Source of the DNA: Candidatus Pelearchaeum sp.
GTDB lineage: Archaea > Thermoproteota > Nitrososphaeria_A > Caldarchaeales > Caldarchaeaceae
Reading direction: 5' to 3'
NCBI GenBank assembly: GCA_015520425.1
Contig: WAQC01000142.1
Span: forward strand, 1 to 24,000
Length of the DNA stretch: 24,000 nt
A program made the position numbers and the translations under genes. The notes beneath the pieces are model-generated. The model had not been told where the DNA came from, ran no database searches, and was given only the letters and a program-made list of their open reading frames with translations. This document shows positions 2,487 through 20,996 of this stretch, piece by piece; the first letter of the stretch is position 1; the number at the start of each line of letters is the position of its first letter.

Positions 2487-2726
2487 ATGGCTGTAATTAC
2501 GGTTAGGGTTGATGACGAGACGAAGAGGATGATGGAGCAGGTCGGGATTAACTGGAGTGAATTCATCAGAGAAGCCATTAAGAAAAAGTTGTCTGAAGAG
2601 AGGAGGAAGAACCTGGCAAGAGCCGTTTTAATAAACGAGAAAGTTAGGAAGAAGAGTGGTGTAGAGCCTAAAGCAGAGGAACTGGTCAGAGCCTTTAGAG
2701 ATGGTAGGTATGGAGGTGGTAATTGA
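2487..2726 (+). CDS. vapB: VapB-type antitoxin (ribbon-helix-helix-like N-terminus)
   Basis: 79 aa beginning MAVITVRVDDETKRMMEQ.., the beta-strand plus helix pattern of RHH/CopG-like antitoxins. It overlaps the downstream PIN gene by 17-26 nt, the classic TA arrangement. Confidence 0.7.
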   Translation: MAVITVRVDDETKRMMEQVGINWSEFIREAIKKKLSEERRKNLARAVLINEKVRKKSGVEPKAEELVRAFRDGRYGGGN

Positions 2727-3135
2727 CGCCAGCGTCATCGTCAAGTGGTTCGTCGCGGAGAAAGGCTCCGACTACGCACTTAAGCTCAGAGACATGTACA
2801 TTAGCGGGGAAATCAAAATCGCCGCCCCAGAGCTACTGCTTTACGAGGTCTTAAACGCAGTCCAACATAAGGGGCTCTTCTCATAAAACGAGATAAAAGA
2901 TATTGCAGAAGCACTAGAAGAGTATTCATTCAACCTCTACCCACTCAGGGGAGAATACGCCGCAAAAACAGTCGAAACAGCACATAAGAACCGCGTAACA
3001 ATATACGACGCTGCTTACATAGCACTAGCAATAATGAAGAATACCCACCTCTATACAGCCGACATCAAACTAATAGAAAAACTACAAACCAAGTATTCCA
3101 GATATGTAAAAAGCCTAGAAAGCCTCTCACGCTAA
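2701..3135 (+). pseudogene. vapC: VapC PIN-domain toxin interrupted by a single in-frame TAA (codon 62)
   Basis: The ORF stops at TAA 2884-2886, but the same frame continues for 82 more sense codons to TAA 3133-3135. The joined 143-aa product is a complete PIN domain, with acidic residues present in VIDASV, LLYEV, IYDAAY and YTAD. Confidence 0.75.
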
Positions 3136-3251
3136 ACAACACTATCCACAACACTTCAAGCCACGCAACAACGCCTCTATATCATTATAACTTTCAATTT
3201 CCTTTTGGAATCAGCTTAAACTCTAGCCGTATATTACTCTCCTTTAGATGA

Positions 3252-3398
3252 TTATTCTGTAATCTCCATCTGTATAACTTTACCCTTCTTAATAGAAACT
3301 CACCTAACAAGACCATATCCAACAAGCCGATTCAACAACTCATAGACAGACTTACTACCCTACCTCCTCTCTAGCTCAGACGCGGAAACCCATAGCAT
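3252..3398 (-). pseudogene. Possible remnant of a small winged-helix regulator with two in-frame stops
   Basis: The minus-strand frame reads MLWVSASELERR*GSKSVYELLNRLVGYGLVR*VSIKKGKVIQMEITE*. The S.SVYELLNRL...GLV pattern is a typical wHTH recognition-helix region. TAG and TGA stops interrupt it. Confidence 0.3.
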
Positions 3399-3493
3399 AG
3401 TATAAAAAATAGCTAAAACAGAGACTCGGCCTCGCTCAGCCTTGAATCTTCAACCTAGTTCATGGCAGTTTAGTTAAATGGATTAAGTTGACC

Positions 3494-3591
3494 TGGGGGC
3501 GGTGGGACTTGAACCCACGGCCTTCGGGTGTCCTCTGACCAGTGTTGGTTGATCTGGAGCCCGACGCCCTACCTTGCTAGGCTACGCCCCC
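3494..3591 (-). tRNA. tRNA-Trp (anticodon CCA) with a 24-nt intron at the canonical 37/38 position
   Basis: Cloverleaf read by eye: acceptor GGGGGCG/CGCCCCC, D arm GCCT-AGCAAGGTA-GGGC, anticodon arm TCGGG-CTCCAGA-CCCGA interrupted after CTCCAG, variable loop AGGCC, T arm GTGGG-TTCAAGT-CCCAC, discriminator A. No CCA is encoded. Confidence 0.9.
3530..3553 (-). other. tRNA-Trp intron (boundary ambiguous by 1 nt)
   Basis: Removing 24 nt (ATCAACCAACACTGGTCAGAGGAC) restores a 7-nt anticodon loop and a 5-bp stem. The intron contains CTGG, complementary to the anticodon-proximal CCAG. Confidence 0.75.
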
Positions 3592-3664
3592 ATCCTATGG
3601 CTACCGTTTGAGTTATTCTCTAGCGGTTATTTGAATTTTATACTCCGTATTTCGGGGTTGGCTG

Positions 3665-4504
3665 TCATCTTAGTTGTTTGACGATTGTCATGAGTTGTTT
3701 TACGCGGTTTATGTCTATTGGGTTCCAGAATTTTCCGTCTTTGCGTAGGTATGAGCCGACTATTGCGCCGTCTGCGTGTTTTAGGAGTTGTGGGGCGTTT
3801 TCTGGTGTTAGTCCGCTTCCGACCAGAACTGGGAGGAGTGTAGCCTTTTTTGCGGCTATTACTTTCTCCGCTGGTGTTGCAGCCCCTGTCCTGGTGCCAG
3901 ATACGATTATGGCGTCTGCGTCAAAGAACTCCACATCAAGGACCTGCTCCTCAAATGGTCTATCACTGATTATGAAGTGGCTTCCGTGCTTTACCTGTAC
4001 GTCTGCGAATACCTTGATATGCTCTGCTCTTAGGTGGTTTCTGTATCTTAGCGCTTTGTGTGCGATTGCCTCTACGAATCCCTCGTCGGCTATGTATGCG
4101 TTTGCCCATTCTGCTGCCCTAACCCAGCGTGCTCCAGATGCTAGGGCTGCTGCCATAGCTTGTATAACTCCATTAGCTAAGCAGCAAATCCCCACTGGCA
4201 TTCCTGTGGTCTTCCTAACTTCGCGCGCCACAACCGCGAGTATGGCGGTGGTTTCATGTCCTATGTCGTCTGGCTTGAGGTATGGTATATCCCCTATATT
4301 CTCCACCTGTAGCCCATCTACATCACCCGACTTTAGAAGCTCCGCGTCTCGCAGCGCGTATTCAATTATATCCTCAACAGGCTGGCCCCTATAGCGCGGC
4401 GCTCCTGGAAGTGGTGGTAGGTGTATCATCGCTATTATCGGTTTAGGGTTCTTGAACAACTCCTTTAGAGGGTCTGGCTTGATTGGTGCATGAGCTTCGG
4501 GCAT
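3665..4504 (-). CDS. BtpA/SgcQ-family TIM-barrel protein (function unknown), paralog 1
   Basis: Family hallmarks are IIAMIHLPPLPGAPRY near the N-terminus and the C-terminal phosphate-binding-type motifs VLVGSGLTPEN and ADGAIVGSY. The ATG at 4504 is preferred over the TTG at 4513. It lies 50-60 nt downstream of a PfkB kinase on the same strand. Confidence 0.8.
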   Translation of the reverse strand: MPEAHAPIKPDPLKELFKNPKPIIAMIHLPPLPGAPRYRGQPVEDIIEYALRDAELLKSGDVDGLQVENIGDIPYLKPDDIGHETTAILAVVAREVRKTTGMPVGICCLANGVIQAMAAALASGARWVRAAEWANAYIADEGFVEAIAHKALRYRNHLRAEHIKVFADVQVKHGSHFIISDRPFEEQVLDVEFFDADAIIVSGTRTGAATPAEKVIAAKKATLLPVLVGSGLTPENAPQLLKHADGAIVGSYLRKDGKFWNPIDINRVKQLMTIVKQLR

Positions 4505-4563
4505 CGCCGTCAAGATGTGTAGCCGCGTACTTAAGGGTGTTGAGCCATGCGTGGCCTGCGGTA

Positions 4564-5499
4564 TTACCTTGGGCCCCTCCTGTGTTGAGTAACTATGTCA
4601 TCAATTCGGGGAGGCTCTCTGAGTCTTCCACCTATCGTTGCTGCTGCTAGGCCGCCCAGCCTATTTGCCAGGGTAGCGCAACGCTCTAAGCTGAGGCTCG
4701 TTACTATGCCATAAATAAAGCCAGCGGCAAAAGCGTCTCCAGAGCCTGTGGTATCCACTGGGTTTACGGATGCCGTAGGGACGTCTATAACGCCGCTCCT
4801 CCCCACAATACTACAGCCGCGGGAGCCACGTTTTAGCACGAAGATACTCCCTATACTCAAGGCTGCCTCACCAATGCTAGTAATGCCCAACCTACCGAGA
4901 AGTTCGCCTGCCTCATCCTCATTCATAAATACGTAGTCAAAAGACCTAAGAAGCTCGTCCAGTTGTTCTCCACCTCTTATGAGAGGTATGCATAGGTCTA
5001 GCGTCTTAGGTATGCCGTGCTTATCTGCTTTCTCCATAATATATTCGGCTGCTCTCTTCTGTGGTTCTTCCAAGAAACAATATCCAGAGATATGTATCAG
5101 TGTTGATTCTGATGCTATATCTCTAGGAAGCAACGCATGTGTAAGGTGCTTATTGGCCCCTCTATATGCGAACATCGTCCTCTCGCCGCCGCGGCTTACC
5201 ACAACATATACAACGCCTGTTGATTCTTTCTCGGTCTTCTGTATGTAACGTGTCCCAACCCTGGCTTTGCGGAGCTCCTCAACCAGAAACTCTCCAACGA
5301 TATCCATGCCCACGCAGCTCACCAGCTCGGAAGATAGTCCGAGAAGTCTAAGTGCATGGGCTACGTTGGCGGCTGAGCCACCAGAAGAAATGTAAGCCCT
5401 ATTAGCTATGGACTCGCCGCCGAGCTTGGGTATATCATCGTGAAAAGCTATAATATCCAGATTAAGGTCGCCGACGCATATAACGCGGCCCTCACGCAT
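4564..5499 (-). CDS. PfkB-family carbohydrate/nucleoside kinase, substrate unknown
   Basis: GGSAANVAHAL and the anion-hole motif DTTGSGDAFAAGF. The ATG at 5499 (MREGRVICVGDLNLD) is preferred over the TTG at 5523. Confidence 0.8.
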   Translation of the reverse strand: MREGRVICVGDLNLDIIAFHDDIPKLGGESIANRAYISSGGSAANVAHALRLLGLSSELVSCVGMDIVGEFLVEELRKARVGTRYIQKTEKESTGVVYVVVSRGGERTMFAYRGANKHLTHALLPRDIASESTLIHISGYCFLEEPQKRAAEYIMEKADKHGIPKTLDLCIPLIRGGEQLDELLRSFDYVFMNEDEAGELLGRLGITSIGEAALSIGSIFVLKRGSRGCSIVGRSGVIDVPTASVNPVDTTGSGDAFAAGFIYGIVTSLSLERCATLANRLGGLAAATIGGRLREPPRIDDIVTQHRRGPR

Positions 5500-5526
5500 G
5501 GTCAGAAAAACGATAACAAACAAAAC

Positions 5527-5537
5527 ATAAGAATTAT
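5527..5537 (-). promoter_or_regulatory. TATA-like box for the PfkB-BtpA transcription unit
   Basis: The minus strand reads ataattctta, centred about 32 nt upstream of the ATG at 5499. Confidence 0.35.
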
Positions 5538-5595
5538 CATACCCACGGTCAATCTACGCTCTTAATCGGGAAGTGATGGCATAATTTTTATCGGA

Positions 5596-5607
5596 TTATT
5601 TTTTAGA
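5596..5607 (+). promoter_or_regulatory. TATA-like box for cdd
   Basis: The element attattttttag is centred about 25 nt upstream of the ATG at 5626. Confidence 0.45.
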
Positions 5608-5625
5608 CTAGCGTTGTGCGTCTTT

Positions 5626-6024
5626 ATGGTATCGGATAAGGAGCTTCTTGGTTTGGCTTTCAGGGCTACGCGACGGTCTTATGCGCCTTATTCGCGCTTT
5701 AGGGTTGGTGCGGCCTTGCTATTAGACAGCGGTGAAGTAATCTTAGGGAGTAATGTGGAGAACGCCAGCTATGGGTTATCCATGTGCGCTGAGCGCGTCG
5801 CTGTCTTTAAAGCGGTTTCTGAGGGAAAGACGCAGTTCAAGGCTATGGCTGTTGTCTCGCGGAAGAGAAACCCCGTATACCCCTGCGGAGCATGTAGGCA
5901 GGTTCTGCGAGAGTTCAACCCAGCGATAAAGATAATCACCGCTGGAAAGAATAGAAAGCCGCTGATAACCAGTTTAAAGAAGCTGCTGCCGAAGAGCTTC
6001 GGCCCTGAAGACCTATCAAAATAA
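5626..6024 (+). CDS. cdd: Cytidine deaminase (short, homotetrameric type)
   Basis: Zinc and catalytic motifs CAERVAVF and PCGACRQVLREF. The ATG at 5626 is preferred over the TTG at 5614. Confidence 0.9.
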   Translation: MVSDKELLGLAFRATRRSYAPYSRFRVGAALLLDSGEVILGSNVENASYGLSMCAERVAVFKAVSEGKTQFKAMAVVSRKRNPVYPCGACRQVLREFNPAIKIITAGKNRKPLITSLKKLLPKSFGPEDLSK

Positions 6025-6072: not shown

Positions 6073-7023
6073 GTGAAGCGGTTGATAATTGATACAGACA
6101 CTGCTGGTGATGATACTATATCAATACTGTTGGCGCTTAAGTGGCCTGGGGTTAGGCTTGAGGCGGTAACAGTTGTTGCTGGTAATGTGGAGTTCTGGCA
6201 GGAGGTGGAGAATGCTCTCTATACCGTTGAGCGCTTCGCCAGCTATCGCGTCCCCGTCTATCCAGGATGTAGCCGCCCCCTCCTCAAGAGCTGGCGCTAC
6301 GCCGATTATGTCCATGGAAAGGATGGGATGGGAGAGAACTACTTCCCGAAAGCCAAACAGCGGCCAGAGAATAAACACGCAGTCCAAGCCTTGCTGGAGC
6401 TGGTCAACTCAAGCCCAGGGGAGTATACGATAATCGCTCAGGGCCCGTTAACCAACATAGCCACAGCGATATTGCTTGACCGTGATTTTGTCAAGAATAT
6501 AGATAGGCTATATGTTATGGGCGGCTATGCCGATGGTTTCGGGAACATAACCCCAGCAGCGGAGTATAACTTCTGGGTAGACCCCGACGCTGCGAGGATT
6601 GTGCTTGAGTCTGGTATTAGGCCTGTTATAGTTGGCTGGGATATTGCGCTGAAGTATAGTGTAGTCTCTGAGGAGGAGCATCGTGAAATAGCTGGATGGG
6701 GGACTAGTGAGGCGGATTTCTTCGTGAAGGTGAATAGGAAAGTTGTGGAGTTTGAGAAGCGTGTCGTCGGTGTTGCTGGGAGCACCCATCCAGACACCAT
6801 AACGACGGCCATAGCCATAGAGCCTCGCGTGGGGAAGAGGATAGAGCCGCGCTATGTGGCGGTTGAGAATGAAAGCGAGCTCACGCGGGGGATGTCGGTG
6901 GTGGACCACCTAGGAGTACTAGGCAAAGAACCCAACGCAGATGTATGCTACGAGGCTGATGGCGAGCTATTCAAGAAGATGCTATTCTCAGTCTTGAAGG
7001 GCAGGCCTGGTGAGCTTGGATGA
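6073..7023 (+). CDS. Nucleoside hydrolase (IU-NH family)
   Basis: N-terminal fingerprint IIDTDTAGDDTISILLAL (DxDxxxDD). GTG start with GGAGGTG 9 nt upstream. The stop overlaps the deoC ATG (ATGA). Confidence 0.9.
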   Translation: MKRLIIDTDTAGDDTISILLALKWPGVRLEAVTVVAGNVEFWQEVENALYTVERFASYRVPVYPGCSRPLLKSWRYADYVHGKDGMGENYFPKAKQRPENKHAVQALLELVNSSPGEYTIIAQGPLTNIATAILLDRDFVKNIDRLYVMGGYADGFGNITPAAEYNFWVDPDAARIVLESGIRPVIVGWDIALKYSVVSEEEHREIAGWGTSEADFFVKVNRKVVEFEKRVVGVAGSTHPDTITTAIAIEPRVGKRIEPRYVAVENESELTRGMSVVDHLGVLGKEPNADVCYEADGELFKKMLFSVLKGRPGELG

Positions 7024-7709
7024 GATTCTCGGCAAAGGACTTGGCTAGGAGGATACAGCATACAAACGTGGCTCCTGACGCTACGCGGGGTGATATTGAG
7101 AAGCTATGCAAAGAATGTATTGAGTATGGGTTTAGCGCAGCGGTGGTTAATCCGATATGGGTTAAGAGCGCTGTCAGCTTATTGAAGGGAACCGATGTTA
7201 AGGTCTGTGCAGCTCTCAACTTCCCGATAGGCGGCTCCACAACCCTGGCTAAGGTCGTTGAAGTACGCGATGTGGTGGCTGCTGGATGTGATGAGATAGA
7301 CTTCATGATAAACGTGGGTTATCTTAAATCAGGCATGGTTGAGGAGTTCAGGAATGATGTAGAAGCCATAGTGCGGGCTGCTGATGGGCGTGTGGTGAAG
7401 GCTATACTGGAGACAGCAATACTGAGCGAAGATGAAGTTAGGCTGGCCGCGAGGCTCTGCGAAGAGGCTGGAGTGGACTATATCAAGAACTCAACGGGCT
7501 GGGGCAAGGGAGGCCCAGCTACGGTTGATATTATAAGACTTATGCGCAGCTCGGTAAGCCCAAAAGTACGCATAAAGGCTTCGGGGGGAATACGCGACTT
7601 CAAGAGCGCTGTTGAGCTCCTAGAGGCAGGAGCCGACCTTCTAGGAACAAGCAGGGGAGTGCAGATAGTAAAGGGAACGATAGACGCTGAGGATGAGTCA
7701 TCCTACTAA
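7020..7709 (+). CDS. deoC: Deoxyribose-phosphate aldolase
   Basis: Class I aldolase pattern of the short DERA type: VKAILET, IKNSTGW, IKASGGIR and LGTS. It is translationally coupled to the upstream gene. Confidence 0.85.
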   Translation: MRFSAKDLARRIQHTNVAPDATRGDIEKLCKECIEYGFSAAVVNPIWVKSAVSLLKGTDVKVCAALNFPIGGSTTLAKVVEVRDVVAAGCDEIDFMINVGYLKSGMVEEFRNDVEAIVRAADGRVVKAILETAILSEDEVRLAARLCEEAGVDYIKNSTGWGKGGPATVDIIRLMRSSVSPKVRIKASGGIRDFKSAVELLEAGADLLGTSRGVQIVKGTIDAEDESSY

Positions 7710-7717
7710 GAGGAGGG

Positions 7718-8653
7718 TTGCCGCACTTGAGTAATGAGATAGTCGTGGTCGGGAGCTATAACACTGGCTTCCTAATCCACGTTGATAGACTCCCAACACG
7801 GGGCGAGACGCTGCCTGGTAGGGGGTTTAGGATGGAGCATGGAGGCAAGGGCTCTAACCAGGCTATACAGGCTGCGCGTCTCGGGTGTAGGACAGCCATG
7901 ATAGCCGCGGTAGGTGATGACATATTCGGAGAACGCGCTATCAAGAAGTGGCGCAACGAAGGAGTGGAGACAGCCTACGTCAAACGCTGCAAAACACCAA
8001 CAGGGGCTGGGCTAATAATCGTAGGCCCAGGAGGGGAAAACATGATAGCCGTAGACCTAGGAGCAAACCTTGAGCTAACACCAAGCGATGTTGATGAGGC
8101 TTTGCAGCGATTGAGCGGTGTAAAAATTGTGCTTACGCAGTTGGAGATACCTTTGGAAACGGCCCTACACGCTCTAGCTCTAGCACAGCGTAATGGGGCC
8201 ATGACTATACTTAACCCAGCCCCCGCAGCCCGTATAACGCCAGCCATGCTAAGGGGCGTCAGCATAATAACGCCTAATGAGGTTGAGGCCAAGATAATGG
8301 CTGGCCTAGGCCCAGATGAGCAGGTAGACTTGGCCGAGCTTGCTAGGACGTATTGCGATGCGGTGGAGCATGTGGTCATAACGCTTGGGGAGCGTGGAGC
8401 GCTCATAGTGGATAGTAAGGGTGAGCGGATAGTTAAGCCGCCGCGGGTAGATGCGGTGGACGCCACAGGGGCTGGCGACGCATTTAACGGAGCGCTGGCA
8501 GCGGCACTAGCGCGGGGCATGGATATTGATACTGCCGTTGAATACGCCTGCGCAGCAGGGGCTTTCCTAGCAGCGCGAATTAAGCGCGGCGAGCTTGTAG
8601 AAGCCCTAGCCACACGCGAGGAGCTAGAAAGATTCAAAAAACAACAACAATAG
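7718..8653 (+). CDS. rbsK: Ribokinase (PfkB family)
   Basis: GGKGSNQAIQAARLG, NPAPA and DATGAGDAFNGALAAAL. The start is TTG at 7718 or 7727, and GAGGAGGG lies immediately upstream. Confidence 0.85.
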   Translation: MPHLSNEIVVVGSYNTGFLIHVDRLPTRGETLPGRGFRMEHGGKGSNQAIQAARLGCRTAMIAAVGDDIFGERAIKKWRNEGVETAYVKRCKTPTGAGLIIVGPGGENMIAVDLGANLELTPSDVDEALQRLSGVKIVLTQLEIPLETALHALALAQRNGAMTILNPAPAARITPAMLRGVSIITPNEVEAKIMAGLGPDEQVDLAELARTYCDAVEHVVITLGERGALIVDSKGERIVKPPRVDAVDATGAGDAFNGALAAALARGMDIDTAVEYACAAGAFLAARIKRGELVEALATREELERFKKQQQ

Positions 8654-8662
8654 CTACCTGCT

Positions 8663-9496
8663 ATGTCGGCGAGAGAGCCGCGTAGCGGCGAGGAGTTTTA
8701 TCATGTGAGAGTCAGGCCTGGAGAGGTTGCGGAATACGTCCTAATACCAGGAGACCCTGAGAGAGTGCCTAAGATAGCCAAGTTCTGGGATGAGGCGCGC
8801 GAGGTCTCGTTTCATAGGGAGTTTAAGCTCTGGAATGGCCGTGTAGGCAGGGCTTCCATATCTGCGTGCTCAACAGGCATAGGCGCGCCATCAACAGCCA
8901 TAGCTATAGAAGAACTAGCCCGCGCAGGTGCGAATACCTTCATAAGGGTTGGAAGCTCAGGCGCAATACAACCAGGAATAAAGATAGGCGAGCTGATAAT
9001 ATCCAAGGCCGCTGTAAGGCTTGAGGGAACCAGCAGACAGTATGTTGTTGAGGGCTATCCAGCGTATGCAGACCTTGAAGTAACCCTAGCCCTAGTGGAA
9101 GCCGCCGAGACGCTGGGGCTACGCTACCACCTGGGAATAACCGCATCCACAGACAGCTTCTACACAGGCCAGGGCAGGCCAGGCTTCAAAAACTATTCCT
9201 GGAGCTACTCAGAGACGCTCCTAAAAGATATGCAGGCCATGGGTGTCGCGAATTTTGAGATGGAGGCATCGGCAATATTCACACTCGCCTCAATTTACGG
9301 ACTTAGGGCTGGCGCGGTATGTACGGTCTTCGCCAATAGGGTTGAAGATACCTTCGGCGTCGCTGGTGAGGAGGACGCTGCCCGCGTCGCTGTGGAGGCT
9401 GTAAAAATACTCCATGAATGGGATGAACTCAAGAAGAGCGCTGGGAAACGCTACATCTACCCATCACTACTAAAGCGGTGGATGCAAACCAAGTGA
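8663..9496 (+). CDS. udp: Uridine phosphorylase (PNP/UDP family)
   Basis: GDPERV, STGIGAPSTAIAIEEL, RVGSSGA, FYTGQGR (a Q/R pair typical of uridine-specific enzymes) and FEMEASAIF. Confidence 0.8.
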   Translation: MSAREPRSGEEFYHVRVRPGEVAEYVLIPGDPERVPKIAKFWDEAREVSFHREFKLWNGRVGRASISACSTGIGAPSTAIAIEELARAGANTFIRVGSSGAIQPGIKIGELIISKAAVRLEGTSRQYVVEGYPAYADLEVTLALVEAAETLGLRYHLGITASTDSFYTGQGRPGFKNYSWSYSETLLKDMQAMGVANFEMEASAIFTLASIYGLRAGAVCTVFANRVEDTFGVAGEEDAARVAVEAVKILHEWDELKKSAGKRYIYPSLLKRWMQTK

Positions 9497-9500
9497 TAGA

Positions 9501-10304
9501 CTACCTAATCTTCCTAACGAGGCGCATAACCTCCCTAACACGCCTGACATCAACAGGATTCGCCAATACCCCACCCATCTTAAAGTATGTTCCGACTATA
9601 GCGCCGTCGGCCACAGATAAGAGTCTCTCAACGTTATCTGGAGTTATCCCACTTCCAACCAACACTGGCCGCGAGGCAGCCGACTTAACCTGCTGAAGCC
9701 TCTCAAGCGGTGTCTCAGCTCCAGTGCGCTCGCCAGATACTATGATAGCGTCAGCCCCCAGCTCCTCAAGCCGCGAAACCTGGGTAGCGAGAGGAATGTC
9801 TGAGGTAATAAAATGACTCCCATGCTTAACCAAAACGTCAGCAAACACACTTACGGGCGTGTCTATCCCTCTTAGACGCTCCGCGCGAGGAGCGGCCGCT
9901 TCCACAAATCCTTCATCAGCGATATACGCATAGGCCCACATATTCGCACGCACCCAACTAGCACCGCATGCCTTCGCTGCGGCTATTGATTCCTCCACAC
10001 CATTGGCTAATATGAACACACCAGTGGGCAAGCCTGTTGTGCGCCTTACCTCGCGGGCAACAGCCGCGACTAGAGCTATGGCCTCGTGGCCAATCTCGCC
10101 AGGCTTAAGGAAAGGGCTATCGCCCATATTCTCAACCTGAACACCATCCACACCACCTTCCTTCAGCGCTTCAGCATCTCTTAGAGCGGTCTCAAACAAA
10201 TCATAAGCCCCTTCCTCAAATCTTGGAGAGCCAGGTAATGGCTTTAAATGAACCATACCAATAATAGGCTTGACAACGCCGAATATCTCTTCAAGAACAT
10301 TCAT
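9501..10304 (-). CDS. BtpA/SgcQ-family TIM-barrel protein, paralog 2
   Basis: IIGMVHLKPLPGSPRF, VLVGSGITPDN and ADGAIVGTY. By eye, about half or more of positions are identical to the protein of 3665..4504. It is convergent with udp and divergent from the transporter operon. Confidence 0.85.
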   Translation of the reverse strand: MNVLEEIFGVVKPIIGMVHLKPLPGSPRFEEGAYDLFETALRDAEALKEGGVDGVQVENMGDSPFLKPGEIGHEAIALVAAVAREVRRTTGLPTGVFILANGVEESIAAAKACGASWVRANMWAYAYIADEGFVEAAAPRAERLRGIDTPVSVFADVLVKHGSHFITSDIPLATQVSRLEELGADAIIVSGERTGAETPLERLQQVKSAASRPVLVGSGITPDNVERLLSVADGAIVGTYFKMGGVLANPVDVRRVREVMRLVRKIR

Positions 10305-10333
10305 CTACCGTGTTGTACTGGCTTGTAGGCATG

Positions 10334-10350
10334 TATATAGCTTTAATATA
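10334..10350. promoter_or_regulatory. Back-to-back TATA boxes in the 71-bp divergent intergenic region
   Basis: tatata (10334-10339) lies 30-35 nt from the minus-strand ATG at 10304. ctttaatata (10341-10350) lies 26-35 nt from the plus-strand ATG at 10376. An imperfect inverted repeat flanks them (gcttgtaggc ... gcctatacaacgc). Confidence 0.5.
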
Positions 10351-10375
10351 CGCTCAGCCTATACAACGCTGGGAA

Positions 10376-11911
10376 ATGAGTAGCCCAACCACGCGTGGCG
10401 AGGTTCTCGTTGAGGCGCGGAGAGTTGTTAAAGCTTTCCCAGGAGTATGGGAGCATTTGATACTTGACCATATTGACTTTGATGTCAGGGCTGGCGAGGT
10501 TCATGCCCTGCTCGGCGAGAACGGCGCTGGGAAGACCGTGCTAGCAAACATACTCTCAGGCTTCTACACACTATCAGAAGGTGAGATAAGAGTCAGGGGA
10601 AGGCCAGTCAAAATAAAATCACCGCTTGACGCCATAAGATATGGTATTGGAATGGTTCATCAAGAATTCACGCTCGTCCCATCTCTTACGGTAGCGGAAA
10701 ACATAGCCCTATCAATAAGGAGGCGTAACATCTTTTCATATCCAGTAAGAGAGGTAGCAACAAAAGTACGCGAGCTGTCCAAGAGGTATGGATTACGCGT
10801 AGACCCTGACATGCTCATAAGCCACATGTCTCTGGGCGAGCAGCAGCGTGTTGAGATACTGAAGGTGCTTTTCTGGGAGCCTAATGTTCTCATACTTGAT
10901 GAGCCTACGTCAGTCTTAACGCTTGAGGAGGCTAATGAGCTGTTTAAGATTCTACGCCGTATGGCGGATGAGGGTAAGGGGGTAGTCTTCATAACGCATC
11001 GCATAGAGGAGATAATGCGCGTGGCCGATAGGGTTACTGTGCTCAGGCTGGGTAAGAAGGTTGGAACGTTAAACGTTGCTGAAGCGTCGCGCGAGCAGCT
11101 TCTGCGCATGATGATAGGCGAGTTTGAGCCGTTTAGAGCTGAGAGAAAACCGCCAAGAATAGGTGAGCCTGTCCTAGAGATTAGAGATTTGCACGTCTGT
11201 GGTGATGATGGTCGGGAAGCTGTCCGCGGCGTTAGCTTCACCACACATGCTGGAGAGATATTCGGTATTGCTGGAGTTGCTGGTAATGGCCAGCGCGAGC
11301 TTGTGGAAGCGATAACTGGCCTGCGTAAAGCTGTGCGCGGCAGAATAATCATCCTAGGACAAGACGCTACCAATAAATCGCCACGCGAGGTCGCGGAGAT
11401 GGGCGTAAGACACATACCAGAAGAACGCCGCCGCGTGGGTGTGGCAGAAGCCATGTGCGTAGCTGAGAATATGATGCTCCGCGACTATAATATCGCTCCA
11501 TTCTCTAAGAAAGGAGTGCTGGACTTGAGACTGATAGGAGAGCATTCCAAGGCTCTTATTGAGAGGTTCAAGATACTCGCTCCTGACATCTGGAATACTG
11601 AAGTAAGGATACTCTCAGGAGGAAATATACAGCGCCTAATATTGGCGCGGGAGCTATGGCGCGCACCCAAGCTTGTAATCGCCTTCCACCCCACGTATGG
11701 CCTTGACCTAAAAGCTGTAAGCCATACCCACGACCTATTTATGCAACTCCGCGATAAAGGCTCATCAATACTCCTAGTCTCTGAAGACCTAGAGGAGATA
11801 CTAACACTAAGCGACCGCATAGGTGTGATGTATGATGGTCGTCTGGTGGGTGTGGTGGAGTCGGAGAAGGCTACTACAGAGGTTATCGGTAAGATGATGA
11901 CTGGTATGTAG
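10376..11911 (+). CDS. Two-domain ABC ATPase of a BMP/nucleoside (CUT2-type) importer
   Basis: NBD1 has GENGAGKT, LSLGEQQRVEI and ILILDEPT. NBD2 is degenerate (GVAGNGQ, LSGGNIQRLILAREL, AFHPTYGLDL), as in RbsA/NupA-like fused ATPases. The ATG at 10376 is preferred over the GTG at 10310. Confidence 0.85.
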   Translation: MSSPTTRGEVLVEARRVVKAFPGVWEHLILDHIDFDVRAGEVHALLGENGAGKTVLANILSGFYTLSEGEIRVRGRPVKIKSPLDAIRYGIGMVHQEFTLVPSLTVAENIALSIRRRNIFSYPVREVATKVRELSKRYGLRVDPDMLISHMSLGEQQRVEILKVLFWEPNVLILDEPTSVLTLEEANELFKILRRMADEGKGVVFITHRIEEIMRVADRVTVLRLGKKVGTLNVAEASREQLLRMMIGEFEPFRAERKPPRIGEPVLEIRDLHVCGDDGREAVRGVSFTTHAGEIFGIAGVAGNGQRELVEAITGLRKAVRGRIIILGQDATNKSPREVAEMGVRHIPEERRRVGVAEAMCVAENMMLRDYNIAPFSKKGVLDLRLIGEHSKALIERFKILAPDIWNTEVRILSGGNIQRLILARELWRAPKLVIAFHPTYGLDLKAVSHTHDLFMQLRDKGSSILLVSEDLEEILTLSDRIGVMYDGRLVGVVESEKATTEVIGKMMTGM

Positions 11912-11937
11912 GCTGTTTCATGAAAATTTCTACAAAG

Positions 11938-11947
11938 ATTTATATAA
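11938..11947 (+). promoter_or_regulatory. TATA box for the binding-protein gene
   Basis: The element atttatataa is centred about 29 nt upstream of the ATG at 11972. Confidence 0.5.
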
Positions 11948-11971
11948 CTTGGCTTAAGTGGCCAGCGCGCT

Positions 11972-13495
11972 ATGAACAGGAAGAGCGCATTAACCAGGCT
12001 AGAAGCAATTCTAGCTGTGCTTTTCGTCGTTGCGCTAATAGCGGCAGGTGTGGGCTGGACTATGCCAAGAGCGGCAGAGACGCTAACCGAGACAATCACA
12101 AAAACAGTAGGCGGAGAGACGGTAACCGTAACAGTTGGCGCTGGTGAGACTGTAACAAAGACAGAGACCATAGTCAAGACAAGCACGGTAACCGTTGAGA
12201 AGCCTGCTATGGGTGTTGTTAAGATAGCTGTGGTCTCCGACATAGGAGGCAGGGGAGACCTATCATTCAACGACATGGCCTTCAAGGGCGGCGACGAAGC
12301 CGTAAGGGACTTTGGTGTTGAGATGATTGAGCTAATCAGTAAAACCGAAGCAGACTACGTACCAAACCTAGAGACCGCAGCCCGCGATCCCGATGTTAAG
12401 CTCATAGTTGGTGTCGGATTCTTATTAAGCGAAGCTCTAGTAGAGGTTGCGCGTAAGTACCCTGATAAGAACTTCGCTGGAATTGACACGTTTAGCCAGG
12501 CTATCGTGAAGGATAAGTATCCTGACGAGTATCCACTACCCAACCTACTGGACATAAAATACGAGGAGCATAAGGGAAGTGCTCTAGTCGGAGCGCTTGG
12601 CTGCCTCCTCGCGGCATACTATAATGAGCAGGGGGCAAACTACAAGTATATAGGCGGTGTATTCGGGATAGAGATACCTGTTCTATGGAAGTTTGAAATC
12701 GGCTACAAGTGGGGATGCGACTGGGCTCTCAAGTGGTATGAGGACAGGTTTGGTAAGCGCGCCCCCATCATAGGCGAGGATAGTATCTACGGCTCAGGAG
12801 AGGGCTGGCAAGATGGGCTATACTGCCCCGAAGCAGGGCAGTGCTGGTATAAGGGCAGGGTCCTATGGACCTACACGGGGACATTCAGCGACATAACAAA
12901 AGGCTACGAGGCTGCCAAGCCTATGTTTGAGCAGGGGGCAGTGGCTGTCTATAACATCGCTGGGCCTCTTGGGCTTGGGATAAACCAAGCGGTTCAGGAG
13001 CTGGCAGAGGAGCGGGGGCTTGAGATGGGCCCACCGTTCTGGATAGGCGTTGACGCCAACCAAGACTGGATAAACCCAGGATTCATCATAGCCAGCATGA
13101 TGAAGCGCGTTGATAGGGGCGTGTATTATGCCACCATGCTTACGCTGATAGGCAAGTTCCGCGACGTAGTGAGGGAGAATGAAGGCGTCCTAACGCTGGG
13201 TATAGGAACTAAGATAGGCGGCCTAACGATGGAGGGAATATCGGTAAGCACACTCGCGGACCTAGACGAGTTCATAGAGATGGGAGTAAGGGCCGAGGAG
13301 CTGACGGGCAAGAAAGTACTACCTATGCCGCCTGAGGAGATAAAGGCGAAGGTCAAGCAGATGCGCGACTCCATAGCGCCGTGGATTTGGGAGGCCGTGG
13401 CTGAGCTGGAGTCAAAGATACGAAACGGCCAGGTTGAAGTACCGCTAGTCGTGACAGAGGACGCTATAGCTAAGTGGAGAGAGCTTCTCGGCTAA
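11972..13495 (+). CDS. BMP-family (PnrA/Med-like) nucleoside-binding protein with N-terminal TM anchor and Thr/Val-rich linker
   Basis: N-terminal TM segment (LEAILAVLFVVALIAAGVGW), linker TETITKTVGGETVTVTVGAGETVTKTETIVKTSTVTVEKP, then the BMP core KIAVVSDIGGRGDLSFNDMAFKG. Confidence 0.8.
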   Translation: MNRKSALTRLEAILAVLFVVALIAAGVGWTMPRAAETLTETITKTVGGETVTVTVGAGETVTKTETIVKTSTVTVEKPAMGVVKIAVVSDIGGRGDLSFNDMAFKGGDEAVRDFGVEMIELISKTEADYVPNLETAARDPDVKLIVGVGFLLSEALVEVARKYPDKNFAGIDTFSQAIVKDKYPDEYPLPNLLDIKYEEHKGSALVGALGCLLAAYYNEQGANYKYIGGVFGIEIPVLWKFEIGYKWGCDWALKWYEDRFGKRAPIIGEDSIYGSGEGWQDGLYCPEAGQCWYKGRVLWTYTGTFSDITKGYEAAKPMFEQGAVAVYNIAGPLGLGINQAVQELAEERGLEMGPPFWIGVDANQDWINPGFIIASMMKRVDRGVYYATMLTLIGKFRDVVRENEGVLTLGIGTKIGGLTMEGISVSTLADLDEFIEMGVRAEELTGKKVLPMPPEEIKAKVKQMRDSIAPWIWEAVAELESKIRNGQVEVPLVVTEDAIAKWRELLG

Positions 13496-13511
13496 AATAC
13501 CCAAACGCACA

Positions 13512-13524
13512 TATTTTTATTTTC
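13512..13524 (+). terminator. T-rich tract after the binding-protein gene (possible partial terminator)
   Basis: The tract tatttttatttt lies 17 nt after the stop at 13495. Oligo-T runs act as archaeal termination signals. It could alternatively be a TATA element for the permease genes. Confidence 0.3.
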
Positions 13525-13560
13525 TACCTAGTTATGCCCCAGCGTGGATGAGCGTGTGAT

Positions 13561-14649
13561 ATGGATTCATCCAGAAAGCTTGGTAGGCTTGGCATCTCGT
13601 CTTCTGTTATCAGGAAGTTTGGAAAGGCTATAGCTGAGTCCCTCTTCGCCGTGCTGATAGGGCTTCTGGGCGGCGCTCTCCTAATGTTAGCATACGGGTA
13701 TGATGCTCTCAGAGCCTATCGCGCCCTGTTCCTCGGCTCCTTCGGCGACCTAAACGGATTCCTAGAGACACTCGCATTTGCGACGCCTCTCATACTGACT
13801 GCCCTCACATTCGGAATAGGCGTCAGGGCTGGCCTATTCAACATAGGCGCGGAGGGGCAGATGTACCTAGGAGCAATCGGCGCAGTAATGATAGGCGGAG
13901 CCCTAAGCCTCCCCCCTGGAATACACCTAGCGGCCGCAACACTCTTCGCCATGCTTCTAGGAGCTCTCTGGAGCATCCCAGTAGCTCTCCTGAAAATATT
14001 CCGCGGGGTCCATGAGGTAGTATCCACCATAATGCTCAACTGGGTATCATTCTGGCTGGCGATGTACTTAATCACATACCACCTAGCGGAGCCTGGCCGC
14101 GCTGAGCGCGCAATACCAGCACAGGAGACGGCTAGGTATATGGTGATAGGCGCCTCCCTAACAACGGTCTTCATAGTAGCCATAGGATTCGCGTTATTGA
14201 CGTACTTCATACTTTGGAGAACAACCATTGGCTATGAGCTGCGCTTAGTGGGCTATAATCCAGATACAGCGCGCTATGCTGGGATTAGCATAATGAAAGC
14301 TACTGTGATAAGCTTCTTCATAGGAGGGTTGGCCGCGGGGCTTGCAGGAGCTACGCAGGTTCTCGGAAGACCCCCTTCATGGACGGTCTACGCAACTATG
14401 GGAAACCTCGTAAACCTAGGGTTTGAGGGGATAGGGGTCTCGCTAATAGGCAGGAACCATCCAATAGGAATAATCTTGGCAGCAATATTCTATGGCGGGT
14501 TCCTACACGGTGGGCGATTCATGGAGTTTGAGGTAGGTGTTGCGTCGGAGCTCGTGAGAGCCATAAACGGAATAATAATTATAGCCCTTGCAATGCCTGA
14601 GCTTCTTAACATTTTAAAGCGAGTTAGGCGTAGGAGGCGGCCTACATGA
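13561..14649 (+). CDS. ABC transporter permease (BMP/ribose-type)
   Basis: Multi-TM protein with the characteristic GLFNIGAEGQMYLGA segment. The stop overlaps the next ATG (ATGA). Confidence 0.85.
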   Translation: MDSSRKLGRLGISSSVIRKFGKAIAESLFAVLIGLLGGALLMLAYGYDALRAYRALFLGSFGDLNGFLETLAFATPLILTALTFGIGVRAGLFNIGAEGQMYLGAIGAVMIGGALSLPPGIHLAAATLFAMLLGALWSIPVALLKIFRGVHEVVSTIMLNWVSFWLAMYLITYHLAEPGRAERAIPAQETARYMVIGASLTTVFIVAIGFALLTYFILWRTTIGYELRLVGYNPDTARYAGISIMKATVISFFIGGLAAGLAGATQVLGRPPSWTVYATMGNLVNLGFEGIGVSLIGRNHPIGIILAAIFYGGFLHGGRFMEFEVGVASELVRAINGIIIIALAMPELLNILKRVRRRRRPT

Positions 14650-15647
14650 AGCTCGGCGCATTGGCACATAGGCTCATCTGGACTGCTGTGGGCCTAGGGC
14701 TCCTAGCGCTGGTAAGCTATGAGCTATCGCAAGCTGGGATTAGGCCCATCAAGCTACTGGAGACAGCCCTACTGCCCATGACGCCCCTAGTCCTAGCGGC
14801 GGTAGGTGAATGCGTCAACGAGAGGGCAGGAGTAATCAACATAGGTATAGAGGGAATATTCCTTATAACAGCGGTACTAGGCGTGTTCTGGGCTGAGGTT
14901 CTCGGCTCAGGACTATTGGGAATATTGATGGGCGGTTTATTCGGAGCCATAATAGGCGGCATCCTAGGCGTGATTAGCACGTACGGCCGCGCAGATCAGA
15001 TAATCGCTGGCATGGGACTAAATGTGATGAGCCTCGGCCTAGTCCAATACCTGCTGATGGCCATATGGGCCTTCCCAGGCATTCACGTATTCCCCCGCGA
15101 GCTGGTGCTACCCCGAATAGCTCTACCAACGCCAATAGGGGTTCTCAGAATAAGCCCCATGACAATCGCTGCAATAATAATAACACTCCTCACCGCACTA
15201 CTCCTCTATAAAACACTTCTCGGCCTCCGCATACGGGCCGCGGGAGACAAACCAGAAGCCGTTGACGTTGCTGGAATCAACGTGAACCGGGTACGCATCT
15301 TCGCCAGCGTATTTGCAGGCTTCCTAGCAGGCCTCGGAGGAGCCTTCATGCCCTTAGCATGGTTTGGCGGGCTTGTTAAAGAAGTATCAGCAGGCAGGGG
15401 ATTCATAGCGCTAGCAGCAGTAGTCTTCGCAGGGCTGAACCCAATACTAGCCCTAGCAGCATCATTCATCTTCGGCTTCGCTGAAGGTCTTGCATTCGCG
15501 ATAGCAGTAACACCAGGCGTAAAAGAAGTCATACCATTCCACTTCGTACAAATGACACCATACCTAGTTACCGTAATAATCCTAGCAATATTCGTAACCT
15601 CACGTAGATTCCCACGAGCACTCGGCAAACCATACATCAGAGAATAA
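14646..15647 (+). CDS. ABC transporter permease (BMP/ribose-type), second subunit
   Basis: Multi-TM protein with GVINIGIEGIFL, translationally coupled to the previous permease. Confidence 0.85.
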   Translation: MKLGALAHRLIWTAVGLGLLALVSYELSQAGIRPIKLLETALLPMTPLVLAAVGECVNERAGVINIGIEGIFLITAVLGVFWAEVLGSGLLGILMGGLFGAIIGGILGVISTYGRADQIIAGMGLNVMSLGLVQYLLMAIWAFPGIHVFPRELVLPRIALPTPIGVLRISPMTIAAIIITLLTALLLYKTLLGLRIRAAGDKPEAVDVAGINVNRVRIFASVFAGFLAGLGGAFMPLAWFGGLVKEVSAGRGFIALAAVVFAGLNPILALAASFIFGFAEGLAFAIAVTPGVKEVIPFHFVQMTPYLVTVIILAIFVTSRRFPRALGKPYIRE

Positions 15648-15668: not shown

Positions 15669-15790
15669 TGCTCGCCGGCACGCGGTCTTCGCGAGGGGTC
15701 TCCCACCTCACTAAAAACCGCGCGGGCAGGGGCTTAGCTTCCAGGTTCGGATGGGTCTGGGCGTTTCCCCCCGCCCTATGACCGGCGAGC
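15669..15790 (-). rRNA. 5S ribosomal RNA, not linked to 16S/23S
   Basis: The minus strand reads GCTCGCCGGTCATAGGGCGG...CCGAACCTGGAAGCTAAGCC...TGCCGGCGAGCA. There is a 10-bp terminal helix plus the conserved CCGAAC..GAAG(Y)TAAGC core, total about 122 nt. The ORFs called here are spurious. Confidence 0.9.
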
Positions 15791-19438: not shown

Positions 19439-19486
19439 GCCCAGCGTCACCCGCGCTAAGCTAAACAAAAACCTAAATCCAAATAC

Positions 19487-19933: not shown

Positions 19934-20302
19934 ATGCCTGTGTATACGGTGAGAATAAGCGGCGCAAAATCGTTAATTAGCAGTAGCTGTCTAAATCTCT
20001 CTAGAGAAAGATTGGCCTGGGATATTATCATAATTGCTGCTGTATTTATAGTCACGACACTCATAGCCCTACTTTATACGCGGTATTTCATCAAGAAGAT
20101 GGGTAGAAATATACCGCCTCCACCGCCCCCGCCTCCTCCACCGCCACAACAAACTGTGATAGTCTCTGTGGAAGACCTAAGAAATCTCCCGCAACCTCCA
20201 AGCCCTAAACTAGGTGCTCAAGTCATGGAGCTTCGTGAGCGCGTCAGGAATATGGAGGAGAGAGTAAAGAAGATTTTGGAGGAGGTTGATGAGATTGCAT
20301 AA
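19934..20302 (+). CDS. Hypothetical single-pass membrane protein with an 11-residue polyproline tract and a C-terminal coiled-coil-like tail
   Basis: TM segment WDIIIIAAVFIVTTLIALLY, then P11 (20114-20146) encoded with all four Pro codons, then ELRERVRNMEERVKKILEEVDEIA. The start is uncertain. Confidence 0.5.
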   Translation: MPVYTVRISGAKSLISSSCLNLSRERLAWDIIIIAAVFIVTTLIALLYTRYFIKKMGRNIPPPPPPPPPPPQQTVIVSVEDLRNLPQPPSPKLGAQVMELRERVRNMEERVKKILEEVDEIA

Positions 20303-20996
20303 GAATAATGCAACTGTTCAAGAAGCGCGTCGCGCAGCCATAATGAGGGCGCTTGAGGAGATTAAAGATGGAATGGTATTAGGTCTGGGAAGCGGCACTA
20401 CCGTTGCGCAGCTAATAGAAGAGTTGGGTAAGATAGTTCGCGGAAAAGGGTTGAGAATCTCGGTAATCCCCAGCTCATACCAAAGCTACCATAAGGCGAT
20501 TGAGCAGGGACTAAAGATAACGTGGCTTGATGAGAATCCAAACCCAGACTTGGTGATAGACAGCTTTGACCAAGTAGATTCTTCTGGCAACGCTATCAAA
20601 GGAGGTGGGGCGGCACTCATGCGTGAAAAGATACTATGCGCAGCCTCGCGACGCGTTATACTCGTAGGTGATGAGAAGAAGCTTGTCGCAAATCTAAACA
20701 TGCCAGTACCTGTTGAGGTCCTCCCTTTTGCTAAAGAGTTCGTAATGCAGTATCTTCGTAAAATAGGCGGTAACCCAAAGCTAAGGGAAGGTACTGGAAA
20801 AGTGGGGCCAATAATAACTGATAACGGAAATATGTTAATAGACGTTAATTTTGGAGTGATTAATGACCCAGAAGGGTTAGACACCCGCTTACATCGCATA
20901 CCTGGTTTGTTGGAGACGGGTATATTCGTTGGGATGGCGCATCGCATAATAATAGGAAAATCTGATGGTAATGTCAGAGAGATTTTACAAAAATAA
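20289..20996 (+). CDS. rpiA: Ribose-5-phosphate isomerase A
   Basis: GLGSGTTVAQLI, KGGGAALMREK, TDNGNMLIDV and ETGIF. ATG at 20289 with GGAGGAGG upstream. Confidence 0.9.
   Translation: MRLHKNNATVQEARRAAIMRALEEIKDGMVLGLGSGTTVAQLIEELGKIVRGKGLRISVIPSSYQSYHKAIEQGLKITWLDENPNPDLVIDSFDQVDSSGNAIKGGGAALMREKILCAASRRVILVGDEKKLVANLNMPVPVEVLPFAKEFVMQYLRKIGGNPKLREGTGKVGPIITDNGNMLIDVNFGVINDPEGLDTRLHRIPGLLETGIFVGMAHRIIIGKSDGNVREILQK

Follow-up and report, generated by a model that had tools for sequence, protein, structure and literature searches.

The 24,000-nucleotide stretch analyzed here (contig WAQC01000142.1 of Candidatus Pelearchaeum sp., an archaeon of the Caldarchaeales [Aigarchaeota]; hereafter, the window) carries a nucleoside cluster made up of cytidine deaminase (cdd), nucleoside hydrolase, deoxyribose-phosphate aldolase (deoC), ribokinase-like PfkB, uridine phosphorylase (udp), and BMP-type ABC transporter genes, together with a further PfkB-family kinase (PfkB-A) and two paralogs of the BtpA/SgcQ family (BtpA1 and BtpA2). 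The locus is one of nucleoside-ribose catabolism, known in purpose, with an uncharacterized enzyme at a key position, and the BtpA family probably represents a missing step in the handling of nucleoside ribose. Comparative genomics shows that BtpA is coupled to PfkB kinases. We regard the evidence as evenly balanced for the reading that PfkB-A, BtpA1, and BtpA2 form a phosphorylate-then-convert module acting on a ribofuranose, with isomerization and/or C-C cleavage favored as the converting reaction.

BtpA1, a putative (beta/alpha)8 barrel, is encoded on the minus strand at positions 3665 to 4504 (279 amino acids [aa] from ATG), downstream of PfkB-A, a ribokinase-superfamily kinase on the same strand at 4564 to 5499 (311 aa from ATG; PF00294, 192.5 bits, E = 1.4e-56). 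BtpA1 matched PF03437 (235.5 bits, E = 9e-70; cut-off 30) and TIGR00259 (218.6 bits; cut-off 153.4), so that the open reading frames (ORFs) and the Pfam and TIGR matches agree with the original prediction of a PfkB kinase gene followed by a BtpA/SgcQ gene. The BtpA1 ORF extends to a TTG start at 4513 (282 aa), and the ATG at 4504 agrees with homolog N termini; the PfkB-A ORF extends to a TTG start at 5523 (319 aa). The two genes are 59 bp apart here and 6 to 32 bp apart in other Caldarchaeum genomes. As had also been predicted, the pair is divergent from cdd across 126 bp, between the PfkB-A ATG at 5499 and the cdd ATG at 5626; this intergenic spacer (5500 to 5625) is AT rich with TATA-like runs and may serve as a promoter region. 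BtpA2 (9501 to 10304, minus strand; PF03437, 236.1 bits; TIGR00259, 226.5 bits), which the original prediction did not mention, is 58% identical to BtpA1; its gene converges on udp and diverges from that of the transporter ATPase. The closest named homologs (80 to 84% identity) belong to Candidatus Caldarchaeum/Aigarchaeota.

Adjacency of BtpA and PfkB is beyond chance. We compared nine looked-up loci of BtpA1-like homologs (49 to 80% identical to BtpA1) and 80 loci from a BtpA-alignment scan of one genome per GTDB species; neighbors were counted in 95 genome loci with hidden Markov models for BtpA and PfkB applied to all six-frame ORFs. A PfkB gene lay within 150 bp of 78 of the 104 BtpA genes in these loci and within 1 kb of 88, and PfkB density was ~1.3 per 10 kb at less than 3 kb from BtpA versus 0.14 per 10 kb beyond, a roughly ninefold difference. 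An independent scan of Joint Genome Institute (JGI) metagenome contigs found PfkB adjacent to 57 of 84 BtpA genes and to 41 of the 50 whose contigs extended at least 1.2 kb on both sides of BtpA. The neighborhood survey proposed with the original prediction was therefore positive in genomes and metagenomes alike. Carriers belonged to the Caldarchaeales/Nitrososphaerota, Bacillota, Alpha- and Gammaproteobacteria, Actinomycetota, Chloroflexota, Thermotogota, Verrucomicrobiota, and Deinococcota, so that PfkB and BtpA are paired in archaea as well as in seven or more phyla of bacteria. Nearly all loci carried a CUT2- or BMP-type ABC transporter (RbsB-like or Bmp) and a GntR, LacI, or RpiR regulator.

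The kinase varies far more than its partner. A single PfkB gene was present in 67 of the 95 loci, two in 18, and none in 10, and 16 of the 18 two-kinase loci combined one ribokinase type with one non-K type. The BtpA-adjacent kinases come from several PfkB subfamilies and are only 20 to 35% identical to PfkB-A while their BtpAs are ~50% identical, and they retain the sugar-binding D16 and N46 and the catalytic D255 of ribokinase. Of the arguments for BtpA requiring a phosphorylated substrate, we consider this exchange of kinase types around a constant BtpA the strongest.

Within the window, the nucleoside genes lie between the two BtpA paralogs on the plus strand: cdd (5626 to 6024; NF004064, 146.5 bits, cut-off 74), an inosine-uridine-preferring nucleoside hydrolase (IUNH; RihA/RihC-like) at 6073 to 7023 (PF01156, 287.8 bits), deoC (7020 to 7709; TIGR00126, 230.9 bits, cut-off 117.3), the ribokinase-like PfkB-B with a GGKGSNQA motif (7718 to 8653), and udp (8663 to 9496; TIGR01718, 297.6 bits, cut-off 280.3). 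PfkB-B is 37% identical to E. coli RbsK and scores barely under the ribokinase cut-off (TIGR02152, 291.8 bits versus 299.65). The BMP-type ABC transporter (10310 to 15647, plus strand; PF00005, PF02608, and PF02653) consists of an ATPase (10310 to 11911), a Bmp/PnrA-like binding protein (11972 to 13495), and two permeases (13561 to 14649 and 14646 to 15647).

The Caldarchaeales cluster is conserved in L001, L002, L009 to L011, and L101 to L104. One gene order recurs in five genome loci of the Caldarchaeum type and in several metagenome contigs: ATPase (minus), BtpA2 (plus), udp-rbsK-deoC-IUNH-cdd (minus), and PfkB-BtpA1-Bmp-permease-permease (plus). PfkB-BtpA1 is co-operonic with the nucleoside transporter genes in this arrangement, and BtpA2 holds the same position in L001, L002, L009, L010, and L011. 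In the window, the Bmp and permease genes have been relocated beside the ATPase gene, a 98-nt tRNA gene and VapBC remnants occupy the former site, and synteny with other Caldarchaeum genomes ends directly downstream of BtpA1 (the region from 2487 to 3664). BtpA2 is in tandem with PfkB and BtpA1 in L016, L092, L099, and L103; the BtpA2-PfkB-BtpA1 tandem of L016 and L099 stands without other nucleoside genes. This operon order raises the possibility of a heteromer or of two sequential steps. The lineage of L092 (69% identical to BtpA1) has the order Bmp transporter (minus), IUNH-BtpA-PfkB-BtpA (plus), and udp (minus).

More distant archaea show other combinations. In one lineage (61 to 63% identical), a single BtpA gene lies next to a Bmp transporter and is divergent from a pair of uridine-phosphorylase-type genes. 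There, BtpA is followed by a P-loop protein weakly resembling dTMP kinase (36 to 43 bits, cut-off 83; L107, 7079 to 7612; L108, 1471 to 2190; L109, 2682 to 3344), which may be a nonorthologous kinase partner or a coincidence. Korarchaeota locus L097, of the classic BtpA subfamily to which the cyanobacterial photosystem I protein also belongs, carries co-directional genes for BtpA, a 5'-deoxyadenosine/methylthioadenosine (MTA) deaminase-like protein, and a major facilitator superfamily transporter (7001 to 10291), with an energy-coupling factor (ECF) transporter, a nucleoside hydrolase, and a PNP/UDP phosphorylase 3 kb away (11977 to 14810); this context hints at a possible role of the classic branch in the salvage of 5'-deoxynucleosides or MTA. 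In a Thermoprotei locus of the same subfamily, BtpA stands alone, with electron transfer flavoprotein, MetE-like, and methylenetetrahydrofolate reductase genes as neighbors. The source record of one Thermoprotei family member (P0418) reads "phosphorybosylanthranilate isomerase," a name that was probably transferred in annotation on account of the TrpF-like fold and says nothing about function. Whether or not PfkB is present, archaeal BtpA thus recurs in the company of nucleoside phosphorylases and hydrolases. The co-occurrence with nucleoside phosphorylase and BMP transporters that the original prediction proposed to look for is observed, as is linkage to nucleoside hydrolase.

Bacterial loci fall into several recurrent types. 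One has the order GntR-PfkB-BtpA, then two small proteins without a Pfam match, then a CUT2 ABC transporter. Another runs GntR-BtpA-PfkB-substrate-binding protein-ATPase-M20 deacylase-permeases-PF07090. A Bacillales operon holds a genuine ribokinase (329.7 bits, cut-off 299.65), PF07090, a pair of ArgE/DapE-type deacylases, an RbsB-like binding protein, BtpA, another PfkB that resembles PfkB-A, and a short-chain dehydrogenase/reductase. Loci of Enterobacterales and Rhizobiales carry a phosphotriesterase (PTE)-family protein, a TenA-like protein, and a carbamoylase-type amidase, and a Meiothermus locus carries a LOG-like protein and a PHP-family hydrolase. These recurrent operons of kinase, BtpA, M20, PF07090, and PTE-family/TenA-like genes, found in Klebsiella, Pantoea, Bacillus, Rhizobium, and others, are themselves uncharacterized.

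The small proteins (~240 and ~100 aa), which follow PfkB-BtpA in Actinomycetota and Alphaproteobacteria, have weak DUF6616 matches only; pairs lie at 8852 to 9888 in L006 and 8849 to 9864 in L008 and occur also in L054, L066, and L024. The larger resembles a tandem duplication of the smaller, and both look like alpha+beta-barrel proteins, e.g., sugar mutarotases. PF07090 ("putative glutamine amidotransferase") is present in L014, L021, L084, L094, and 30 other loci, and the ArgE/DapE-type M20 deacylase genes sit between the ABC ATPase and permease genes. We considered and rejected BtpA and PF07090 as an amidotransferase pair in the style of HisF/HisH or PdxS/PdxT, as a representative PF07090 has no Cys at the nucleophile position.

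AlphaFold2, run on a 69-sequence alignment, predicted BtpA1 to be an eight-stranded barrel with a beta-hairpin after strand 4 (predicted local distance difference test, 94.6; predicted template-modeling [TM] score, 0.92). Foldseek searches of the PDB gave weak matches only (TM ~0.55, 12 to 18% identity) and no close solved structure; the best matches were thiamine phosphate synthase, TenI, HisA/PriA, TrpF, HisF, 2-keto-3-deoxy-6-phosphogalactonate (KDPGal) aldolase, orotidine 5'-monophosphate (OMP) decarboxylase, 3-hexulose-6-phosphate synthase (HPS), ribulose-phosphate epimerase, NanE, and geranylgeranylglyceryl phosphate synthase (GGGPS). Sequence and profile searches found no BtpA-family structure in the PDB, and matches were confined to residues ~196 to 259 (TrpA, GGGPS, HisF, HPS, and OMP decarboxylase). 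By homology this segment is the standard beta6-beta8 phosphate site, in line with the phosphate-binding loops that had been proposed at the C terminus.

When 1.84 billion cluster representatives were searched with a profile, 5,563 clusters matched at an E value of ≤1e-3; the family amounts to ~5,500 clusters at 50% identity. The 148 nearest representatives share the signature H31, E71, N72, D75, N114, R132, R156, R158, D171, K175, T209, and G232-S233-G234, while H179 is confined to the BtpA1-like branch. In the AlphaFold2 model, H31, E71, and D171 lie at the C-terminal ends of strands beta1, beta2, and beta5, R132 lies inside beta4, and N72, D75, N114, R156/R158, K175, and T209 are in loops or the helix after the respective strands. 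K175 is kept in 143 of 146 distant representatives. The position of R132, R156, and R158, away from the Gly-rich site, suggests a second anion site, and the modeled active-site constellation strongly implies that BtpA is an enzyme. Longer proteins among 150 distant representatives contained no informative extra domain, and one partial-PfkB and partial-BtpA chimera (P0246) is probably an artefact.

Named relatives offer limited guidance. The E. coli sgcQ gene does sit in a sugar operon, as originally described (sgcX-sgcB-sgcC-sgcQ-sgcA-sgcE-sgcR), and SgcQ belongs to the same Pfam family, with phosphorylation supplied there by the phosphotransferase system (PTS). The SgcQ branch pairs with a PTS or an FGGY kinase and an M42 or M29 peptidase instead of PfkB. 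However, SgcQ is only 29% identical and has S, S, N, E, and N in place of E71, D75, D171, K175, and G232, all of which the window BtpAs carry; the latter thus fall outside the SgcQ subfamily, and SgcQ, invoked in the original prediction, is a poor guide to them. The cyanobacterial BtpA of photosystem I biogenesis is also of the same family and carries the H-E-D-R-R-R-D-K signature, and its subfamily takes in Korarchaeota, Thermoprotei, and Bathyarchaeia proteins. Its branch nevertheless has Pro at the H179 position, both window paralogs score 181.6 bits against the equivalog model for this protein (NF045918, cut-off 400), and its photosystem phenotype has no counterpart in a nonphotosynthetic archaeon.

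PfkB-A belongs to the PF00294 family, with a full-length match, the GG dipeptide, and a GAGD-type anion hole with the catalytic Asp, and every equivalog model tried scored under its cut-off. The best NCBIfam match was the haloarchaeal ATP-dependent ribose-1-phosphate (R1P) kinase (NF053626, 141.4 bits, cut-off 330), followed by ribokinase (TIGR02152, 128.3 bits, cut-off 299.65; PfkB-A has GGSAANVA instead of GGKGxNQ). It failed the Thermococcales ADP-dependent R1P kinase model (NF041134, 113.9 bits, cut-off 500), and nucleoside-kinase models scored low (59.6 bits, cut-off 450). Aligned to E. coli RbsK, PfkB-A keeps D16, G41-G42, N46, E143, G254, and D255 and has Ser for K43; its closest solved structure is the uncharacterized PH1459.

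These observations are consistent with the following pathway, in which both the substrate and the reaction type of BtpA are hypotheses. Nucleosides would be imported by the BMP-type ABC transporter, and the products of cdd, udp, and the nucleoside hydrolase gene, on the basis of curated family assignments, would remove the base to give R1P or free ribose. PfkB-A would then phosphorylate the 5-OH of the ribofuranose, be it R1P or ribose, a role proposed because the sugar-binding residues of ribokinase are kept and because of the nearest curated models. BtpA would hold the sugar phosphate through its beta7/beta8 Gly-Ser-Gly and Gly-Ser loops, probably with a second anion site formed by R132, R156, and R158, while H31 (beta1), E71/D75 (beta2), D171 (beta5), and K175 may carry out acid-base chemistry at C1 to C3 of the pentose. 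For the converting step we favor an aldose-to-ketose isomerization and/or C-C cleavage to a triose phosphate. We infer that a new pentose-phosphate step is needed in this lineage; the literature reports no nonoxidative pentose phosphate pathway in Caldarchaeales metagenome-assembled genomes and no RuBisCO in six Aigarchaeota bins.

The two-gene grammar of PfkB/FGGY-BtpA is also that of the kinase and barrel-lyase pairs KdgK-Eda, DeoK-DeoC, LacC-LacD, and FucK-FucA, down to an adjoining sugar transporter and a GntR, LacI, or DeoR regulator, and KDPGal aldolase and TrpA are among the fold and profile neighbors of BtpA. In contrast to those lyases, BtpA falls outside every known aldolase family and its conserved Lys is in a loop; to our knowledge, no aldolase activity is known for BtpA. 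The dihydroxyacetone phosphate (DHAP) shunt, which consists of a kinase or phosphorylase, an MtnA-type isomerase, and an aldolase, offers a further parallel, with the Korarchaeota BtpA adjoining its 5'-deoxyadenosine-deaminase-like gene.

Several points weigh against a ribose-phosphate module of this kind. RpiA, another component absent from the original prediction, is already encoded in the window (20286 to 20996, plus strand; NF001924, 225.6 bits, cut-off 192), and the module is also found in bacteria whose pentose phosphate pathway is complete. The M20, PF07090, PTE-family, and TenA-like partners in bacteria mean that the substrate may not be plain ribose phosphate. The fold neighbors span isomerases, aldolases, decarboxylases, and synthases and so do not discriminate the type of reaction, and the place of K175, four residues past beta5 in the beta5-alpha5 loop, is unusual for a Schiff-base lysine. 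Archaeal lineages in which BtpA accompanies two uridine phosphorylases, or a 5'-deoxyadenosine-deaminase-like gene, have no PfkB within 7 to 8 kb of it. Since some archaeal lineages have BtpA and udp without PfkB, the kinase-dependent model as originally framed is too narrow. Lastly, as the original prediction had held, the family has no established reaction in the literature searched, the PDB, or the NCBIfam release of June 2026; full-text matches concerned the Brucella TIR protein BtpA and unrelated acronyms, with nothing on BtpA/SgcQ biochemistry.

The alternatives are best weighed against known routes of nucleoside ribose. The Thermococcus pentose bisphosphate pathway moves nucleoside ribose into glycolysis (PMC9700705). 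Its parts are a nucleoside phosphorylase, a PfkB-family ADP-dependent R1P kinase, an e2b2-type ribose-1,5-bisphosphate (R15P) isomerase, and type III RuBisCO. The window shares with it the goal and an R1P-producing udp; however, a TIM barrel stands where the e2b2 isomerase would be, and the kinase fails the corresponding model. The presence of udp and the absence of phosphopentomutase, R15P isomerase, and RuBisCO genes from the window, both noted originally, were confirmed. The haloarchaeal noncarboxylating pathway, which is RuBisCO free, comprises an ATP-dependent R1P kinase, R15P isomerase, ribulose-1,5-bisphosphate (RuBP) phosphatase, and ribulose-1-phosphate (Ru1P) aldolase; its kinase model is the best curated match of PfkB-A, and its final aldol cleavage to DHAP is a candidate reaction for BtpA. 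Against this likeness, the kinase match reaches only 141 of 330 bits, and the isomerase and class II aldolase were not seen. Neither RuBisCO nor the RuBP phosphatase and Ru1P aldolase combination is encoded within the window, where the type II haloacid dehalogenase (HAD) hydrolase at 21287 to 21976 (minus strand) scores 31.8 bits against the RuBP phosphatase model (cut-off 330).

A strict pentose bisphosphate route, in which udp yields R1P, PfkB-A is an R1P 5-kinase, and BtpA is a nonhomologous R15P isomerase or bisphosphate lyase, is the most probable of the alternatives, and we consider it unlikely. It would account for the haloarchaeal R1P kinase model heading the curated matches of PfkB-A, for udp being adjacent in every Caldarchaeales locus, and for the 16 loci with one ribokinase-type and one non-K-type PfkB; the standard phosphate site and three conserved Arg could hold a second phosphate, and neither the window nor any of the examined BtpA loci showed an e2b2 isomerase or RuBisCO (for the isomerase, the Pfam-annotated BtpA loci). 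Yet both R1P kinase scores are far under their cut-offs and the ribokinase model scores nearly as high, no downstream RuBP-consuming enzyme was found (the HAD hydrolase being a very poor match), and archaeal lineages have udp and BtpA without PfkB. Moreover, because 67 of the 95 loci have a single kinase and bacterial loci lack a phosphorylase, a bisphosphate cannot be the general substrate. Of the kinase-plus-barrel pentose-phosphate step originally proposed, then, the linkage and the phosphate-binding barrel held up, whereas no observation singles out R15P as the substrate or isomerase, epimerase, or aldolase chemistry as the reaction.

Comparison with the E. coli deo operon (deoC-deoA-deoB-deoD) and cdd/udp raises another alternative. 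The catabolic logic is the same, with cdd, udp, deoC, and a nucleoside transporter in common, but deoB was not found in the window, which has PfkB-A, two BtpAs, and a nucleoside hydrolase and ribokinase branch instead; the cluster is a deo-type set complete except for the mutase, and neither the window nor the Caldarchaeales loci with Pfam annotation (L001, L002, and L092) yielded a DeoB or phosphoglucomutase/phosphomannomutase (PGM/PMM)-type gene. BtpA could therefore be a nonhomologous phosphopentomutase that interconverts (deoxy)ribose-1-phosphate and -5-phosphate, joining udp to deoC and RpiA, with PfkB-A supplying an R15P primer or simply making ribose-5-phosphate (R5P). The BtpA-udp adjacency that survives without PfkB would fit such a role, as would two paralogs serving ribose and deoxyribose, and an invariant His31 with two anion sites would suit phosphoryl transfer via a bisphosphate. 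We nonetheless think it quite improbable: no known phosphomutase has this fold, bacterial BtpA loci show kinases rather than phosphorylases, Enterobacterales and Bacillales normally have DeoB/Drm, and the genome may encode a PGM/PMM-type mutase outside the window.

The bacterial neighborhoods raise a different possibility, a riboside 5'-kinase whose product, a 5-phosphoribosyl-N compound, would be attacked by BtpA at its anomeric center, through cleavage or phosphorolysis of the N-glycoside or a TrpF/HisA-like Amadori-type rearrangement (as a deglycase), in the manner of PsuK/PsuG. Bacterial BtpA operons are rich in C-N hydrolases (M20 deacylases, carbamoylase-type amidase, amidase, TenA-like, and PTE-family proteins), the Meiothermus LOG-like protein is of the nucleotide phosphoribohydrolase kind, the SgcQ branch is paired with M42/M29 aminopeptidases, and in the archaeal lineage that lacks PfkB, the gene after BtpA encodes a P-loop protein resembling dTMP kinase. 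In addition, the top fold matches include HisA, PriA, TrpF, and HisF, whose acid-base pair is mirrored by the His-beta1/Asp-beta5 arrangement. It is hard, however, to square an aglycone pocket that varies with BtpAs that stay ~50% identical while hydrolases and kinases differ; udp and a nucleoside hydrolase are already part of the archaeal cluster, and nucleoside-kinase models fit PfkB-A poorly. We would be rather surprised if this proved correct, as with the mutase.

That BtpA is a nonenzymatic membrane-complex biogenesis factor beside PfkB only incidentally, as database entries under the name "membrane complex biogenesis BtpA family protein" or the like and the Thermoprotei homolog that stands alone without a kinase might suggest, is highly improbable given PfkB adjacency that recurs across domains in two independent samples, a predicted soluble barrel with an invariant catalytic-face constellation and phosphate site, and the failed cyanobacterial equivalog match.

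In its broadest form, the phosphorylate-then-convert reading would make PF03437 a new class of pentose-phosphate lyase/isomerase acting on kinase- or phosphorylase-derived ribofuranose phosphates; we put this forward tentatively, as the less probable form of the proposal. If true, the path by which PfkB-A, BtpA1, and BtpA2 bring nucleoside ribose into glycolysis in Caldarchaeales would be the third in archaea, independent of both RuBisCO and the e2b2 isomerase, and BtpA would catalyze the unrecognized last step in many bacterial operons for riboside or sugar-amine catabolism. BtpA/SgcQ is a large cross-domain family without a curated function, named only from an indirect photosystem phenotype, and its near-constant wiring to a kinase and a ribose/nucleoside transporter narrows "function unknown" to assays on commercial pentose phosphates.

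The remaining features of the window are peripheral to the module. The rpiA gene lies ~10 kb from the cluster, possibly in the same pathway, so that interconversion of R5P and ribulose-5-phosphate is already on hand. A GlcD-like FAD-linked oxidase (18023 to 19468, minus strand) scored 212.9 bits, below its cut-off; a role of this oxidase and the HAD hydrolase in processing glycolaldehyde/glycolate or a phosphate ester, were BtpA a lyase, is purely speculative. The 98-nt tRNA directly downstream of BtpA1 (3494 to 3591, minus strand; Rfam RF00005, 61.1 bits) was not called by ARAGORN and, because Rfam finds it and ARAGORN misses it, probably contains an intron. A VapB antitoxin gene (2487 to 2726) and a truncated PIN fragment (2701 to 2886) are followed by ~600 bp without an ORF longer than 43 aa. 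Directly after the transporter permease genes lies a stand-alone 5S rRNA gene (15670 to 15789, minus strand; Rfam, 84.7 bits).

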